In this document: one piece after another, positions 1 through 5,052 of the stretch | Position numbering within the stretch: position 1 is the stretch's first letter | Layout: every line of letters starts with the position of its first letter | DNA from: a virus | Taxonomy: Duplodnaviria > Heunggongvirae > Uroviricota > Caudoviricetes | Length of the DNA stretch: 5,565 nt | IMG/VR virus record: IMGVR_UViG_2531839474_000014 | Location: 1-5,565 of that record | Reading direction: 5' to 3' (one strand) | Notes under the pieces: generated by a model | Told to the model about the DNA's origin: nothing | Database searches by the model: none | What the model saw: the letters and a program-made list of their open reading frames with translations, nothing else | Translations under genes and position numbers: made by a program

Positions 1-17
1 TATCGCGCCCTCAACAA

Positions 18-165
18 TGAGTTTTGTGATGCGGTGCCTGGTGCCTCCAGGTGACGTTAACCAGTTAACAATTAACGCCGGATACAGAGAATCCACCCAT
101 AACACTGTTTTTGGTTTTAACTGTTCCGCGTGCGCTTAGCCGCATTCACCGCATCACAAAATTCA
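18..165 (-). repeat. Long-range inverted repeat: arm 18-36 (tgagttttgtgatgcggtg) and arm 147-165 (caccgcatcacaaaattca), 18 of 19 complementary, about 110 bp apart; lies between the DicF terminator and the presumed dicB-like start
   Basis: Reverse complement of 18-36 is caccgcatcacaaaactca, differing from 147-165 at one position. Would form a long stem in a minus-strand read-through transcript. Confidence 0.55.
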
Positions 166-169
166 CTTT

Positions 170-227
170 AAAAAGGGCGGCAGAGCAGTCACGGAGTAAA
201 ACTGATACCGCCAAACGTCACCAGAAA
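170..227 (-). ncRNA. dicF: DicF-like small RNA (53-nt mature species about 175-227 plus U-tail to about 170), cell-division inhibitor sRNA of the dicB operon
   Basis: Minus-strand sequence TTTCTGGTGACGTTTGGCGGTATCAGTTTTACTCCGTGACTGCTCTGCCGCCC followed by TTTTT matches the E. coli DicF sequence as I recall it (53 nt). GGCGG...CCGCC stem plus U-run gives an intrinsic-terminator-like 3' end. Position downstream of ydfC-like gene matches the Qin order ydfABC-dicF-dicB. Confidence 0.75.
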
Positions 228-568
228 ATTGATAACAGAGGGCGTTGCAGCGGGGTTGTCACTTAAGCGTATGGTCAACCTGACAACCCGGTGTCCTCAA
301 CGGGGGAAGGAATAACCCCGCCATACTTACCGCCGCGCCATTTCGCGGATTGCCACAACCGGAAGCGCACGGTCGACGAAAATTTAACGACAGGCTATCT
401 ATGAACCAGCTACCTCGCCGTGCGCTTTCGCGTTATGGTCTGACTTTTCAGGGAAATATCCTTTCAGTAAACTGTCAGTGCCGGATGCTCACCCGTGTCC
501 GGCGCACGCACTCCACCTCACCCGTGGAGAACTCCTTAATTACCAACCTTAGCTTCGTTGGTTAGCTA

Positions 569-787
569 TTAACGCGGGTATGTAATCATTCTGGCAATGC
601 TTAATGCCGCTGCTTTTTCCAGATTGGTGATATCCTGCTCCAGAGAGAACAGATTTTCAGCCTGCTTAGCCCTGGCTTCATTAGCCCATTTCAGATCCTG
701 CGCTGCATTAATTTTCTGGTGCATCCACTCATAAAGTTCATCATCGGTATAGTCTGGCGCGATGATAACGGGTTCTCGTTTCTGCAT
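569..787 (-). CDS. ydfC: Small prophage protein, YdfC-like (72 aa), function unknown
   Basis: ORF with ATG at 787-785 preceded by GAGGAA 5 nt upstream (minus strand). 72 aa, same size and operon position as Qin YdfC. Symbol assigned from size, order and linkage to dicF, not from sequence alignment. Confidence 0.65.
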   Translation of the reverse strand: MQKREPVIIAPDYTDDELYEWMHQKINAAQDLKWANEARAKQAENLFSLEQDITNLEKAAALSIARMITYPR

Positions 788-816
788 ACTGATTCCTCGC
801 GGTGCTGTTTCGCTTA

Positions 817-945
817 TCAGCCGTTAGATTTTGCCGAACTGGAAAGCGCCTGTTTAAATTCGCTGAAGCTGAGAGCTTCTTCGCCTTCGGCAAGGCCTTC
901 GAAGTATTCTTCGTAAGCCTTTTCCATGATTGTGTCGAAATCCAT
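817..945 (-). CDS. ydfB: Small acidic protein, YdfB-like (42 aa: MDFDTIMEKAYEEYFEGLAEGEEALSFSEFKQALSSSAKSNG); not in the supplied ORF track
   Basis: Hand translation of the third minus frame. ATG at 945-943 preceded by AGGTGG with 5-nt spacer; stop at 819-817. Starts 1 nt after the ydfA-like stop. 42 aa matches the size of Qin YdfB. Confidence 0.6.
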   Translation of the reverse strand: MDFDTIMEKAYEEYFEGLAEGEEALSFSEFKQALSSSAKSNG

Positions 946-946
946 A

Positions 947-1102
947 TCACCCACCTGAATTTCTTTCCAGCCAGCGACGCGCTCCAGATTCGGTTTTAAA
1001 CGTTTTGCTTTTGGTATACGTCATTGCGGTGAACGTGCCGTCCTGGTTTGGAAACACGCCGTACACCAGAGATTCGTTGTTGCCAAGATCGATAGTATCC
1101 AT
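947..1102 (-). CDS. ydfA: Small prophage protein, YdfA-like (51 aa: MDTIDLGNNESLVYGVFPNQDGTFTAMTYTKSKTFKTESGARRWLERNSGG)
   Basis: Internal ATG (1102-1100) of the 947-1156 minus ORF has a GAGG RBS 6 nt upstream; the longer form has none. 51 aa matches Qin YdfA size; first gene after the repressor-controlled leftward promoter. Confidence 0.65.
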   Translation of the reverse strand: MDTIDLGNNESLVYGVFPNQDGTFTAMTYTKSKTFKTESGARRWLERNSGG

Positions 1103-1179
1103 GCTGACCTCATTTCCCCTTAACGCCGGGGTAGCGGAACTGTTTGCTGAGAACACCGTGCGGTGTCTTGATGGAAAAT

Positions 1180-1208
1180 AATTTAGAATAACCTAACATG
1201 AGAGGCAA
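1180..1208 (-). promoter_or_regulatory. Putative sigma70 promoter of the leftward ydfA-ydfB-ydfC-dicF operon (minus strand -35 TTGCCT at 1208-1203, 17-bp spacer, -10 TAAATT at 1185-1180)
   Basis: Hexamers read on the minus strand, each 4 of 6 to consensus. Flanked and overlapped by operator-like TTAG-N6-CTAA sites. Inferred from sequence only. Confidence 0.4.
1183..1196. promoter_or_regulatory. Operator-like site TTAGaataacCTAA overlapping the -10 of the leftward promoter
   Basis: Shares the TTAG-N6-CTAA core with three other sites around the repressor gene. Confidence 0.45.
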
Positions 1209-1215
1209 GTGTTTT

Positions 1216-1235
1216 TTGTTAGATTGATCTAACAA
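1216..1235. promoter_or_regulatory. Perfect palindrome TTGTTAGAT-tg-ATCTAACAA (9-bp arms), candidate repressor operator upstream of the leftward promoter
   Basis: Perfect dyad symmetry seen directly. Core TTAG-N6-CTAA at 1219-1232. Near-identical half-sites recur at 1728-1745 in the dicA-dicC intergenic region. Confidence 0.6.
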
Positions 1236-1270
1236 AAAGGGTGGGCGCAACTAATCACTTGAAAAGAATG

Positions 1271-1678
1271 TTATTTTATTGATTTATTTTTACGCGCTTT
1301 AAGCATTTCTTCGAAGAGTTTGTTGAAGTTTTCTACTCTTGCGCGCATTTCAGACAGCAAGGCTTCCTGCTCGGAAGATGGAAGAGCATCGAATAATTCG
1401 ATCAATTCTTTGTGGTTGGGAGTTAGCTCTGTTTCCACATGAAGTTCTTGTGCAGGCACTGGTGCCTTGTCTTCGTCACCAAACATTAGCCATGTAGGTG
1501 AGCACTTCAGAGCATCCGCTAAAGCAAACAATCGTTTTCCGACTGGCTGGGTTTCGTCTCTTTCCCATTGTGAAATTGTGACGTGAGCAACTCCAGCGAG
1601 GCGCGCGGCTTCTCGTTGTGTTAAGCGTAATTCTTTTCGTCGCGCCAGAACTCGCTGGCCCAGGGTTCTTGTATCCAT
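1271..1678 (-). CDS. dicA: DicA-like XRE-family HTH repressor (CI analogue), 135 aa
   Basis: N-terminal HTH (LRLTQREAARLAGVAHVTISQWERDETQP) and C-terminal half (CSPTW..FGDEDK ... EMRARVENFNKLFEEMLKARK) closely resemble E. coli DicA as recalled, same 135-aa length. The HTH recognition region differs, suggesting different operator specificity. Divergent from a Cro-like gene. Confidence 0.9.
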   Translation of the reverse strand: MDTRTLGQRVLARRKELRLTQREAARLAGVAHVTISQWERDETQPVGKRLFALADALKCSPTWLMFGDEDKAPVPAQELHVETELTPNHKELIELFDALPSSEQEALLSEMRARVENFNKLFEEMLKARKNKSIK

Positions 1679-1680
1679 AG

Positions 1681-1694
1681 TTAGGTAATTCTAA
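1681..1694. promoter_or_regulatory. Operator-like site TTAGgtaattCTAA next to the repressor start codon; overlaps a -10-like TAGAAT on the minus strand
   Basis: TTAG-N6-CTAA core. Minus-strand TAGAAT (complement of 1688-1693) sits 9 nt upstream of the dicA-like ATG, with no Shine-Dalgarno between. Confidence 0.4.
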
Positions 1695-1700
1695 TTTTTC

Positions 1701-1728
1701 TTGACTTAGGTATCCCGCGCACAATAAT
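1701..1728 (+). promoter_or_regulatory. Putative rightward promoter for the Cro-like gene (-35 TTGACT 1701-1706, 16-bp spacer, -10 AATAAT 1723-1728)
   Basis: -35 is 5 of 6 and -10 is 5 of 6 to consensus. The operator palindrome at 1728-1745 overlaps the -10 and predicted start site. Confidence 0.5.
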
Positions 1729-1745
1729 GTTAGAAAAGTCTAACA
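1728..1745. promoter_or_regulatory. Operator palindrome TGTTAG-aaaagt-CTAACA overlapping the rightward promoter
   Basis: Perfect 6-bp inverted arms with the same TGTTAG/CTAACA half-sites as the 1216-1235 palindrome. Confidence 0.6.
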
Positions 1746-1758
1746 AGAGGGGGATTTG

Positions 1759-1986
1759 ATGCTTAAAGTTGACGCAATTACTTTTTTTGGCAGCAAAACA
1801 AAGCTTGCCAATGCCGCAGGAGTGAGGCTGGCAAGTGTTGCTGCTTGGGGGATACTGGTTCCTGAAGGTCGCGCGATGCGTCTACAGGAGGCATCTGGCG
1901 GGGAGCTTCAGTATGATCCCAAAGTTTATGATGAATATCGTAAGACGAAGCGGGCGGGGCGGTTGAACAATGAAAATCACTCCTGA
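1759..1986 (+). CDS. dicC: Cro-like small DNA-binding protein (DicC analogue), about 75 aa
   Basis: Divergent from the repressor. ATG at 1759 with GAGGGGG RBS 5 nt upstream; the ORF-track start at 1756 is a TTG. Small basic protein in the Cro position. Symbol by position, not by verified alignment. Confidence 0.7.
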   Translation: MLKVDAITFFGSKTKLANAAGVRLASVAAWGILVPEGRAMRLQEASGGELQYDPKVYDEYRKTKRAGRLNNENHS

Positions 1987-2491
1987 ACAGGCTCGTGAGG
2001 CTCTGGATGCCTGGATATGTCGACCAGGAATGACACAGGAGCAGGCGACGATATTAATCACTGAAGCATTCTGGGCTTTGAAAGAGCGCCCGAACATCGA
2101 TGTTCAGCGTGTCACAGATGAAGGTGGCGCGGTTGATCAGCGAGCGCTTGGTGTTAATCGAGTGAAGATATTCGAACGCTGGAAGGCTATCGACACCAGG
2201 GATAAGCGTGAAAAGTTCACGGCGCTAGTGCCTGCGATTATGGAGGCTATCCGGATTAGTGATTTCAGGTTGTATCGTGAAATTACTGACGGAAAAAGCA
2301 TCACGTGCATGATCGCCGGGTTAAACAAAGAATATGGCGATGTGGTGGAGTCCGGACTGCTTTTTGCTGATCCTGCCGTAGTGGATCGTGAAACTGACGA
2401 ACTTATAGAAAAAGCAATTGCTTTCAAGCTTGCGTATCGACAGCAATACCAACAAAAAGCTGGATGGAATTATGAGCCTTCTTTTTGCTGA
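1970..2491 (+). CDS. YdaT-like protein (CII-analogue family), 173 aa
   Basis: Overlaps the Cro-like stop by 17 nt, suggesting translational coupling. The segment WKAIDTRDKREKFTALVPAIMEAIRISDFRLY resembles Rac YdaT (WLKGETKTQREKIQKLIPAILAILPRELRHRL) as recalled. Sits where CII would in a lambdoid layout. Confidence 0.6.
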   Translation: MKITPEQAREALDAWICRPGMTQEQATILITEAFWALKERPNIDVQRVTDEGGAVDQRALGVNRVKIFERWKAIDTRDKREKFTALVPAIMEAIRISDFRLYREITDGKSITCMIAGLNKEYGDVVESGLLFADPAVVDRETDELIEKAIAFKLAYRQQYQQKAGWNYEPSFC

Positions 2492-3437
2492 ACGCCCACT
2501 GGTTATAAACACGCAGCTGGCAATGAAAATTGGCTTAAACGAAGCCATTGTTTTGCAACAACTGCACTACTGGTTGAGAGATACCAACTCCGGCATGGAA
2601 TGTGATGGTGTTCGCTGGATTTATAACACAACGGAACAATGGCTGGAACAGTTCCCATTCTGGTCAGAGTCAACGTTAAAGCGCGCGTTTGCAAGTCTGA
2701 AAACGCTGGGGCTTTTGCGTTGTGAAAAGCTCAATAAATCAAAGCGCGATATGACCAATTTCTACACGATCAACTATGGGAGCGAGCTTTTAGATGGTGG
2801 CAAATTGAGCGAATCCATCGGTTCAAAATGCGCCGCTCCATCAGGTCAAAATGACACGATGGAAGAGGTCAAAATGAAACGCTCCATTGGTTCAAAACGA
2901 CTCAATGTCATCGGGTCAAAATGGCCTGATGATCTTACAGAGAATACAACAGAGATTACTACAGAGAATAAAAAGACTTCTCGTCCGGAAGCTTCGCAAC
3001 CGGACCCGCAGACGGTTGAACAGGATTTTTTAACCCGACACCCTGACGCGGTTGTGTTCAGTGCGAAAAAACGCCAGTGGGGCAGCCAGGAAGATTTGGC
3101 GTGTGCGCAGTGGATCTGGGGGCGAATCGTGAGTCTTTACGAGCAGGCCGCCAGCGATGATGGCGAGATTTCGCGACCGAAAGAACCCAACTGGACCGCA
3201 TGGGCCAACGACGTGCGCACAATGCGGATGCTGGATGGCAGAACTCACAGACAAATTTGTGAAATGTTTGGTCGGGTGCAGCGGGATCCATTCTGGGTAA
3301 AAAATATCATGAGTCCGTCAAAGCTTCGCGAAAAATGGGATGAACTGGTTATCCGCCTGGGGCGTTCGTCTGTACAGCGTTGTGTGAATCATATTTCTGA
3401 GCCGGATACCGAAATTCCGCCGGGCTTCAGGGGGTAA
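2472..3437 (+). CDS. Phage replication initiation protein (lambda-O-like organisation) with internal origin and DnaT-like C-terminal tail, 321 aa from the first ATG (alternative TTG start at 2418)
   Basis: Iterons and an AT-rich repeat block lie inside the coding sequence, as in lambda O. C-terminus VNHISEPDTEIPPGFRG matches the C-terminus of E. coli primosomal protein DnaT (...VNTVSEPDSQIPPGFRG) as recalled. Confidence 0.8.
   Translation: MSLLFAERPLVINTQLAMKIGLNEAIVLQQLHYWLRDTNSGMECDGVRWIYNTTEQWLEQFPFWSESTLKRAFASLKTLGLLRCEKLNKSKRDMTNFYTINYGSELLDGGKLSESIGSKCAAPSGQNDTMEEVKMKRSIGSKRLNVIGSKWPDDLTENTTEITTENKKTSRPEASQPDPQTVEQDFLTRHPDAVVFSAKKRQWGSQEDLACAQWIWGRIVSLYEQAASDDGEISRPKEPNWTAWANDVRTMRMLDGRTHRQICEMFGRVQRDPFWVKNIMSPSKLREKWDELVIRLGRSSVQRCVNHISEPDTEIPPGFRG
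2814..2923. repeat. Five direct iterons with core GGT(T/C)CAAAA(T/C)G, ending at 2830, 2853, 2876, 2899 and 2923 (23-24 bp phasing); putative phage origin inside the initiator gene
   Basis: tCCATCGGTTCAAAATG, tCCATCAGGTCAAAATG, gaAGAGGTCAAAATG, tCCATTGGTTCAAAACG, gtCATCGGGTCAAAATG. They encode repeated SIGSK-type peptides in the protein. Confidence 0.75.
2937..2970. repeat. Three 12-bp-phased A+T-rich repeats ACAGAGA(A/T)TA just right of the iterons; candidate DNA-unwinding element
   Basis: ACAGAGAATA at 2937, ACAGAGATTA at 2949, ACAGAGAATA at 2961. Position relative to the iterons mirrors the lambda origin. Confidence 0.55.
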
Positions 3438-3477
3438 GTGTTAATTTCTGGTCATGAGGTAATTTTCAGGAGGGCTT

Positions 3478-3900
3478 GTGGCAAAAGTTTTTACACAAGA
3501 AGAGCGGGAAAAAATTAAAGGGCAGGTTGTTGAACTCGTACGCCGGAGTGGGCGTGAGACGTTACGGCAACTGGAAGTCAAGACAGGTGCGACAAGATAT
3601 CTGATGAGCGTTCTCGCAAGAGAGCTGGTTGCCAGCGGCGATGTATACAACTCTGGTTACGGGTTATTCCCGTCTGAACAGGCGCGTAAGGACTGGCAAA
3701 ATGCCCGTAAAAAGCTCTCAAGGGCAAAGCTGAAGGAACCATCTGCGGTTGATCCGGACCTTATCTGGTCATTACCTGACGGAGAAATACGTCGCTACGA
3801 CAGGCGTCAGAACATAATCTGTCGCGAGTGCCGGAAGAGTGAAGTTATGCAGCGCATACTAGCATTCTATCAGGGAAATGCTCGATATTTATTGAAGTGA
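3478..3900 (+). CDS. Hypothetical prophage protein, 140 aa, GTG start; possible winged-helix-like N-terminus
   Basis: AGGAGG RBS at 3468-3473 upstream of GTG 3478. Composition matches the neighbouring phage genes. Ends with tandem stops TGA TGA. No family recognised. Confidence 0.65.
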   Translation: MAKVFTQEEREKIKGQVVELVRRSGRETLRQLEVKTGATRYLMSVLARELVASGDVYNSGYGLFPSEQARKDWQNARKKLSRAKLKEPSAVDPDLIWSLPDGEIRRYDRRQNIICRECRKSEVMQRILAFYQGNARYLLK

Positions 3901-4082
3901 TGAGATTAAAGTTTATTAGTTCAGATATTGATTGGCTCTTTTGTGGAGTAGGGTAGAGTTAGTGTGTTTGTCTGCTTGGTGCCAGCAGCGGATATGTTTA
4001 ACAACAGAAAGCATTCAGCATGGTTAGTGGATTTGCAAAGTGGATTAGGATTTGAGAAACTTTGATGAAGTTGTAAAGCTTG

Positions 4083-4117
4083 TTTCTATAAAAATAGAAA
4101 TTTAACTAATAGTTAAA
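4083..4117. promoter_or_regulatory. Two adjacent A+T-rich palindromes (TTTCTAT-aaaa-ATAGAAA at 4083-4100; TTTAACT-aat-AGTTAAA at 4101-4117) about 35-70 bp upstream of the orphan ORF; candidate operator or promoter region
   Basis: Perfect 7-bp inverted arms seen directly. Followed by AAGGA RBS (4139-4143) and ATG at 4153. Confidence 0.35.
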
Positions 4118-4152
4118 CACACCTCCAGCTTCATTGAAAAGGATTATTAGCT

Positions 4153-5052
4153 ATGATTGATCCACTTATTAGAAACTTACAGAGTGATATTGCACTACTC
4201 CAGCTTTATATCGCGCAACGCAAACAGGCAGGCTTTCATGACATGGAAAGAATAATTGAGTCATTGACCATCTTTATGTTTCGCGCGCTGAAAATGGGTG
4301 AACTGGTAAACATGAATCAGATTAAAGTTAATTTTCCCGCCATTGATTTAGCTGATAATAAAAACATGATAGCAGTTCAAGTTACTACGAATGCAAGTCC
4401 AGCAAAAATTAAAAAAACTATCGAATCTTTTGAGAAAATAAATGAAATAGGAGAGAGTCTGAAAGATAAATACTCTACTTTATATATTTTTGGTTTTTGT
4501 AAAGCCTCAAGATACCTAACTCCAAGTTATTGTAAAATAATCGACCCCAGCTATTTCGTGAATGAACTTTGCGATAAAGCAGATGAAGATATGGTCCAGG
4601 ATATGATTGACGCCATTCGACGCCATCATGATTATACATCATTACATCCATGGAGTGATAAAGATTCACTCGAAATTATACTCAATATTATTAATCGCAA
4701 TGCAATAAAACATCGGATGAGTTGCGAAGGCAGTCTGTCTGATATGCTCACTGGTTTAAAAGAAATTAATGAAGTAATTACAAAAGGAACAATTCAACGT
4801 AAGCAACGTTCAAAATCGATATCTGACTTCAAAGATCAAAGCATGGTGAAATTTATGAGAGGTGTAATGGATGATTTGTCTGTTATTCAAGCCATAGTGA
4901 ACAAATCTAAAGTTAACCAAGGTGATATGGTTTATATAAGCCATGAAGATATGATTAATATTGATAAATTAAAAGCTAAAATAGCAAGTGATTCATCAGA
5001 GATTGCAAGGCTAAATAATATTGATATAACACTAAATGTTGTTGATTTATAA
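4153..5052 (+). CDS. Orphan low-GC protein, 299 aa, function unknown; candidate accessory (defence or abortive-infection type) gene
   Basis: Long uninterrupted ORF with AAGGA RBS 9 nt upstream. G+C roughly 30-35 percent by eye against about 50 percent in flanking genes. No catalytic motif recognised. N-terminal segment NFPAIDLADNKNMIAVQVTTNASPAKIKK loosely recalls N-terminal domains of conflict-system proteins (unverified). Confidence 0.8.
   Translation: MIDPLIRNLQSDIALLQLYIAQRKQAGFHDMERIIESLTIFMFRALKMGELVNMNQIKVNFPAIDLADNKNMIAVQVTTNASPAKIKKTIESFEKINEIGESLKDKYSTLYIFGFCKASRYLTPSYCKIIDPSYFVNELCDKADEDMVQDMIDAIRRHHDYTSLHPWSDKDSLEIILNIINRNAIKHRMSCEGSLSDMLTGLKEINEVITKGTIQRKQRSKSISDFKDQSMVKFMRGVMDDLSVIQAIVNKSKVNQGDMVYISHEDMINIDKLKAKIASDSSEIARLNNIDITLNVVDL

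Follow-up and report, generated by a model that had tools for sequence, protein, structure and literature searches.

DicF and DicB are textbook examples of cell-division inhibitors encoded by prophages, and the way in which both are produced from one transcript is still being worked out. In the stretch of DNA analysed here (5,565 nt, positions 1 to 5,565 of IMG/VR virus record IMGVR_UViG_2531839474_000014, hereafter called the window), the minus strand is the dicBF operon of a Qin-like prophage, and a long-range inverted repeat lies between the DicF sRNA and the dicB gene. The question addressed in this work is whether this repeat acts in the DNA or in the transcript, and what it would do there. 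A preliminary description made from the sequence had proposed that the two arms form a long duplex in a read-through transcript and serve as an RNase III processing or stability element, or as a control on dicB translation.

The DicF gene was located by a match to Rfam family RF00039 (76.7 bits, window 226..175, minus strand) and by comparison with MG1655, in which the annotated DicF (1649382-1649434) corresponds to window 227..175 in a gap-free alignment with 5 mismatches in 227 nt. The 53-nt sRNA (175..227, minus strand) includes its intrinsic terminator hairpin and is followed by the terminator U-tract at 174-170 (minus strand). Upstream of DicF are found ydfC, ydfB, and a ydfA-like gene, with dicA- and dicC-like genes beyond these. 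Downstream, the dicB ATG begins 1 base past window position 1, as seen in identical and near-identical genomes. The dicF-dicB spacer is 174 nt in length and contains the inverted repeat, in agreement with the position between the DicF terminator and a dicB-like gene that had been assigned to it. Promoter and terminator scans of window 1-600 gave nothing above chance. Further upstream, between ydfC and a second hairpin of the operon (353-438, see below), an exact 10-nt direct repeat CTCACCCGTG is present at 488-497 and 517-526, 29 nt apart.

A repeat search found the 19-bp repeat again exactly as first described, i.e., two 19-nt arms at 18-36 and 147-165 that are 95% complementary (18 of 19 positions) and 110 nt apart. 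The chance expectation is approximately 2e-4 by our own arithmetic (about 1e6 arm placements at distances of up to 200 nt in the 5.5-kb window, multiplied by 58/4^19). In the dicBF sense (minus strand) the helix, designated P1 here and not to be confused with phage P1, comprises 21 positions in which 167-147 pair with 36-16. It grows outward by two pairs (G166.U17 and A167-U16) beyond the arms originally noted, so that the 5' arm covers 147..167 and the 3' arm 16..36 (both minus strand); these limits are given by the repeat search, the fold, and the alignment. P1 is composed of 19 Watson-Crick pairs, one G.U pair, and one A.C mismatch, the latter (A162.C21) being the only mismatch in the helix. 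In a thermodynamic fold of the read-through RNA, all pairs except 162/21 have probabilities of 0.91-1.00, as expected for the long duplex that had been postulated, and folding of the 230-nt minus-strand transcript (1-230), which the preliminary description had suggested as a check, gave a z-score of -5.0 against shuffled sequences. RNase III substrates are duplexes of about two helical turns (~20 bp), and P1 has this length.

The relatives of the locus bear on whether the duplex itself is selected. In an alignment of 27 relatives from 7 enterobacterial genera (alignment A5, to which members from Citrobacter, Pseudescherichia, Klebsiella, Raoultella, and Enterobacter were added), 12 of the 21 P1 pairs are changed on both sides and 94.2% of the cells are paired, and the covariation of the two arms that had been named as the critical observation is thus present. 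For the whole structure, 96.3% of the cells in A5 are paired, a figure that falls to 33-39% with slid partners. In this alignment 21 pairs show changes on both sides, and the covariation score is 0.347 versus 0.177 in shuffled alignments (reached by 0 of 500 shuffles); all these values lean towards structure because A5 was fitted to the structure model. A MAFFT alignment made independently of structure (A3) gave 94.7% paired cells versus 28-42% with slid partners, 12 pairs changed on both sides, and a score of 0.165 versus 0.095, again reached by 0 of 500 shuffles. The arm sequences diverge among the genera and the duplex length is kept at 17-24 bp. The strand under selection can be read from the wobble pairs: among 20 E. 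coli-type P1 haplotypes, 36 G.U cells and 5 A.C cells occur on the minus strand, and since these numbers would be reversed on the opposite strand, the excess of G.U indicates selection on the dicBF sense RNA. The A.C mismatch of the window is a minor allele (9 of 111 loci), the pair being A-U in most relatives. Judged from these comparative data, the inverted repeat is an RNA helix, and the duplex itself has been kept in evolution.

P1 closes a folded and pseudoknotted RNA domain of about 110 nt (about 150 nt with the arms, window 167..16, minus strand), in which long invariant blocks flank a hypervariable insert. Proceeding from the 5' arm on the minus strand, hairpin H1 (131..144) consists of a UGCG/CGCA stem that is invariant in all relatives and a variable loop, GCUAAG; the stem pairs never vary and are therefore neutral on the existence of H1, and its position equals that of a hairpin in the STnc100 consensus. 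The 5' strand of helix P2 (CGGA, 125..128) pairs with UCCG at 82-79, and two of its four pairs are changed on both sides (A-U to C-G and G-C to A-U). Next to it, CAGUUAA at 117..123 is the 5' strand of the pseudoknot and is complementary to UUAACUG (68-62) of the H3 loop. Across the family, at least 8 distinct sequence pairs are complementary over 6-10 bp at this position, each pair being individually just modestly unlikely. The insert (83..116) is located inside P2 and is a mosaic that varies in length and sequence among otherwise near-identical copies. Many unrelated insert versions were seen, reshuffled independently of the downstream gene (examples were noted at eight loci). The segment at 54..82 contains the 3' strand of P2 (82-79) and H3, a 9-bp hairpin (78-70 with 62-54) whose loop, GUUAACU at 69-63, supplies the second (3') strand of the pseudoknot. 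Of the nine H3 pairs, five are changed on both sides. After a CA junction, the domain ends with hairpin H4 (37..53, CCUGG, loop AGGCA, CCAGG), in which a U-A pair is replaced by G-C in 11 of 26 sequences. Nowhere in the STnc100 superfamily is conservation higher than in this H4 block, UCACCNGGAGGCACCNGGCACC.

A tRNA-like cloverleaf, which the helix lengths brought to mind at first sight, was rejected: ARAGORN predicted 0 genes, no match to the Rfam tRNA clan was found at E values up to 10 in window 1-260, and the variants favour a 4-bp P2 and a 9-bp H3 instead of an anticodon arm. Some copies consist of the 3' half only. At several loci of this kind the domain is joined to unrelated sequence exactly at ..AUCCGGCG, with the breakpoint at about 77-80, and one genome retains only window 77-600; this common breakpoint suggests that the conserved 3' half is a recombination junction between phage modules.

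The family to which the domain belongs became apparent in a permissive Rfam scan, in which window 163..23 matched STnc100 (RF02076, 38.8 bits, E=2.7e-7, model positions 21-154 of 206); in gathering mode the same model gave no match, 38.8 bits being below its cutoff of 47. In the STnc100 alignment, the repeat is the closing helix of the family. Conversely, a covariance model (R1) built solely from 30 copies of the subfamily of the window's domain finds bona fide STnc100 loci at E values of 1e-4 to 1e-11, most of them at about 1e-6 or better. The dicB copy has the core architecture and the conserved 3' block CACCNGGAGGCACCNGGCACC of the family, and both groups reside in prophages of Enterobacteriaceae. 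They have the same order of elements, namely closing helix, GAAU junction, small hairpin, H3, and the near-invariant UCACCNGGAGGCACCNGGCACC, and in each of them the segment after H1 forms a pseudoknot with the H3 loop, with different sequences. They also differ. The closing helix is 8-9 bp in STnc100 and 21 bp in the dicB copy; STnc100 is a gene of its own, whereas the dicB copy is embedded in an operon transcript; and the linker and intrinsic terminator that follow the domain in stand-alone STnc100 genes are absent from the dicB copy, which runs directly into the dicB ribosome-binding site (no terminator was found after the 3' arm, and the dicB Shine-Dalgarno sequence and ATG lie within 16 nt). 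From these matches, we assign the domain to the STnc100/PasD superfamily as a sub-threshold member in a new setting.

STnc100 and PasD are Hfq-associated prophage sRNAs, one copy of which is located 75 nt downstream of stx2B. The relationship itself is uninformative on mechanism, and the preprint on the STnc100/PasD family mentions neither Qin, Rac, and RNase III nor a pseudoknot. The RIL-seq tables examined list dicF and the ydfC-dicF spacer and hold no entry for the dicF-dicB spacer, the operon being repressed in laboratory conditions; the literature examined likewise records no discrete spacer RNA of about 130 nt.

Copies of the element occur well beyond the Qin-like locus. In a megablast search of E. 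coli genomes, window 16-180 alone, at approximately 81% identity, was found directly upstream of kilR in Rac-type prophages, and window 30-153 upstream of a TerB-family gene on a phage-plasmid; further copies are present in records of Stx phages, P7, D6, and a Klebsiella phage. In these places the domain lies just upstream of kilR (which, like dicB, encodes a cell-division inhibitor), a Rha/Ash gene, a Klebsiella ORF of 40 aa, or tciA of the phage P1 type. In the dicB, kilR, and most Rha/Ash copies, the 5' arm begins directly after the U-tract of an sRNA terminator, the sRNA in question being DicF in Qin and KilS in Rac. The length of the closing helix differs with the setting. The stand-alone STnc100-type genes, some of which form tandem arrays, have a linker, an intrinsic terminator, and a helix of 8-9 bp; in the copies embedded before dicB, kilR, the Rha/Ash gene, and the Klebsiella ORF it is about 20-22 bp long, or up to 30 with the outer extension. 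The embedded copies of phages P1, P7, and D6 upstream of tciA have a closing helix of just 8-9 bp, so that the long helix is not needed in every embedded copy.

What would a long duplex at this place do? According to two secondary sources (PMC5069750, PMC9438474), a 72-nt DicF is made by RNase III from the full-length mRNA, with a 3' end 19 nt past the terminated one. This second RNase III cut was already reported in 1990, and the idea of the preliminary description that the repeat is an RNase III processing element is thus supported and is mostly a rediscovery. By coordinate arithmetic from the published sizes of 53 and 72 nt, the 3' end of the 72-nt form (...AAAGUGAAUUUUGU) falls at about window 156, or anywhere in 151-156 if the terminator U-tail is allowed for; the position is uncertain by a few nt since it was derived from sizes given in secondary sources, and the duplex may differ from the one drawn by the original authors. 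The whole range 151-156 is inside the 5' arm of P1, near the middle of the helix. RNase III usually cuts the two strands with a stagger that leaves 2-nt 3' overhangs. Assuming this stagger, the partner cut on the 3' arm would be near 26/25.

An RNA-seq comparison (PMC5371410) contains a site at MG1655 1649470, equivalent to window 139 and thus within the domain, with 26 reads in an rnc deletion and 0 in two wild-type replicates. These data are unstranded and of low coverage, and sites lying less than 400 bp apart had been merged in them. The site carries the label "known" in that study, and the read difference could reflect changed operon expression in the rnc mutant. The better-documented RNase III cut of the operon is located upstream of DicF and produces the 5' end of the 190-nt DicF (Faubladier 1990; Ragunathan 2023, PMC10448788). 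This end maps to about window 360-364. A hairpin distinct from P1, with a stem of about 22 bp, lies at ~353-438 (minus strand) and contains the end in its 3' arm, and we therefore rejected P1 as the site of the documented 190-nt cut. The upstream site resembles P1 in being a helix of similar length (~22 bp) in the same operon that is associated with the same enzyme, and differs in being a local hairpin, P1 being long-range. With P1 on one side and this hairpin on the other, DicF is bracketed by two RNase III duplexes.

The repeat also lies next to the start of dicB. The dicB Shine-Dalgarno (SD) region (7..12, minus strand, with GAGGG at 12-8) is predicted to prolong P1 outward by pairing with GCCCUU at 178-173, which belongs to the 3' side of the DicF terminator. 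In folds of the read-through RNA, the SD has an unpaired probability of 0.01-0.04, and the paired SD bases of dicB-type copies in general have values of 0.00-0.05. Fragments that begin at window 30 or 26 are predicted to have four of the five SD bases unpaired at about 0.98, with G12 staying paired; in a fragment from window 22 the SD is 0.96-0.99 unpaired. The AUG is placed within a weak local hairpin in these fragments. If the fragment begins at window 16, directly after the 3' arm, the value for the SD is only 0.43-0.68. For the kilR, Rha/Ash, Klebsiella, Citrobacter, and tciA copies, the same analysis does not predict that the 5' flank masks the SD, and masking was rejected as a family-wide role. 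It cannot explain the conservation of the long helix in the kilR, Rha/Ash, Klebsiella, and Citrobacter copies, for which it is not predicted. The control on dicB translation that had been suggested at the outset is therefore retained as a folding prediction for the dicB-type copies and is not general across the family; masking of the SD may add to dicB control.

We propose that the repeat is probably an extended STnc100-type closing helix that is cut by RNase III near its middle on read-through. In the copies of lambdoid early-left operons, located after DicF or KilS and before dicB, kilR, or a similar gene, P1 has been extended to about 21 bp, against the 8-9 bp usual in the family. Read-through of the DicF terminator would allow the P1 duplex to form and become a substrate for RNase III. 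Cleavage in the 5' arm would create the 3' end of the reported 72-nt DicF at about window 156. If the 3' arm were cut with a stagger near 26/25, the domain would be released and would retain about 9 bp of its closing helix, as many as the stand-alone STnc100 genes have; the dicB mRNA would then begin about 25 nt upstream of the start codon. In dicB-type copies, the uncut structure would bury the ribosome-binding site, and cutting could unmask it.

Other readings of the repeat must be weighed against this proposal. If it acted as DNA, for example as the terminal repeats of a miniature element or as a site for recombination or protein binding, one could understand why the element recurs in different genomic contexts and why truncated copies share a breakpoint at about 77-80. 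A constraint on DNA, however, would give no strand bias, and the 36 G.U versus 5 A.C cells are counted on one strand; the arms differ among genera with pairing kept, the orientation to transcription is always the same, and the interior, which in a MITE would be variable or non-functional, is a conserved RNA fold with a covarying pseudoknot. We regard an action as DNA as having a negligible probability. We give no more credence to selection for a structure in an antisense (plus-strand) transcript or for a small protein, the candidate frames being a plus-strand ORF at 17-139 (40 aa) and an 11-codon minus-strand ORF in the insert. It is true that the A.C mismatch of the window becomes G.U on the plus strand and that one weak promoter-like match lies at 65-92 of that strand, but a single match is not above the level of shuffles (0.6 expected), and the asymmetry of wobbles and mismatches across haplotypes points to the minus strand, the A.C being the minor allele found at 9 of 111 loci. 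The invariant blocks, compensatory pairs, and hypervariable insert display no codon periodicity.

Two further readings accept an RNA helix on the dicBF transcript and dispute what it does. P1 might be mainly a translational lock that, extended as far as the ribosome-binding site, prevents the synthesis of the toxic downstream product from transcripts leaking through the DicF terminator, with RNase III being incidental. The genes that follow, dicB and kilR, encode cell-division inhibitors, and in the dicB fold the SD is unpaired at only 0.01-0.04, being paired with the 3' side of the terminator. The SD is nevertheless free of the 5' flank in the kilR, Rha/Ash, Klebsiella, Citrobacter, and tciA folds, the lineages with kilR, Rha/Ash, Klebsiella, and Citrobacter copies still maintain a helix of 17-24 bp through compensatory changes, and masking does not require the 12 additional pairs that separate the family core from the SD. 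This makes a lock unlikely as the main role, although it may coexist with cleavage. Alternatively, the extension of P1 could be a structural clamp only, which secures the folding of the domain within a long translated mRNA and has no part in processing or regulation. Stand-alone copies, whose 5' end is just before P1, manage with 8-9 bp, and embedded copies face competing flanking sequence, as a clamp would lead one to expect; yet the copies in phages P1, P7, and D6 are embedded too and have 8-9 bp. Moreover, 21 pairs far exceed the need of folding and correspond to the length that RNase III cuts, and an RNase III-dependent end is reported inside the helix. We consider a clamp without processing very unlikely. 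Cleavage of the extended closing helix by RNase III is the reading adopted in what follows.

Cleavage of this kind has parallels in well-known systems. In the stems of the 16S and 23S rRNA precursors and of the phage T7 early sites, distant flanks pair and enclose a folded RNA, and a double cut would free the enclosed RNA and split the upstream from the downstream product. The dicF-dicB domain differs from these in its size of about 110 nt, and in that only the 5'-arm cut is reported and the 3'-arm cut would follow from the stagger. The hairpin of the lambda N leader and the cIII mRNA are similar in that an early-left operon is involved and RNase III acts on a leader structure with consequences for ribosome access downstream. 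There is no sequence relationship to them, however, and they are local hairpins, whereas P1 is a long-range helix around a separate domain of 110 nt; the translational effect at dicB is a prediction only.

To judge from the searchable literature, three aspects are new: a pseudoknotted STnc100/PasD domain occupies the dicF-dicB and kilS-kilR spacers, and the duplex is its closing helix in extended form; the STnc100/PasD family has a covarying pseudoknot; and a long closing helix marks the copies before dicB, kilR, the Rha/Ash gene, and the Klebsiella ORF, the embedded copies of the phage P1 type being without it. The 174-nt dicF-dicB "spacer" is almost wholly a conserved folded RNA of this family, and this cassette is also found in front of kilR in Rac and of genes in Stx, P1-like, and Klebsiella phages. 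The second RNase III cut, reported long ago, is now placed in a defined duplex with compensatory conservation, and exact coordinates are supplied with which northern probes, RNase III assays, and compensatory mutants can be designed. Provided that the domain is set free, it would be a third RNA product of the operon, and the 5' domain of STnc100 would be a portable structured module that is more than scaffolding for a seed. One may speculate further, although we rather doubt it at present, that a released domain of about 130 nt is a third functional product of the dicBF operon and of the kilS-kilR leader that acts by its fold (e.g., by binding a host or phage protein) and not by seed pairing, and that lambdoid and P1-like phages use it in two forms, a gene of its own (STnc100, PasD) and a cassette that is excised from in front of host-takeover genes.

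Several minor observations were made during the survey of copies. Eight hits of a genome-wide pattern scan in unrelated GC-rich genomes failed the covariance model and were discarded as chance matches. Hits in MAGs of Veillonella, Nanosynbacter, and Collinsella and in one Proteobacteria-labelled MAG look like mis-binned enterobacterial prophage sequence. Similarly, the records of Aeromonas phage AP1 and an Actinobacillus phage and three MAG loci are 87-98% identical to an E. coli prophage region, and contamination or mis-binning is the likely source of such E. coli prophage sequence under unrelated hosts. In Rac, KilS (b4833; MG1655 1418230-1418502, locus L132) holds the position of DicF, the order being sRNA, domain, and kilR. 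At two other loci the order is reversed, and the domain, with a 9-bp P1, precedes a KilS-like terminator and resembles a stand-alone sRNA. Locus L136 (2310-3366, minus strand) contains four tandem STnc100-type units, two of which are followed by an intrinsic terminator, and the pseudoknot pair differs from unit to unit. In four copies of the phage P1/P7/D6 type, a boxA-like motif, UGCUCUU(A/U), is located just 5' of the closing helix, at the site of the outer 5' arm in the lambdoid copies. Finally, in four Rha/Ash copies the outer 3' arm sequence GUUCAC can pair either with the 5' arm or with a downstream GUGA, and a UCAC-UUCG-GUGA tetraloop hairpin is a possible alternative structure there.
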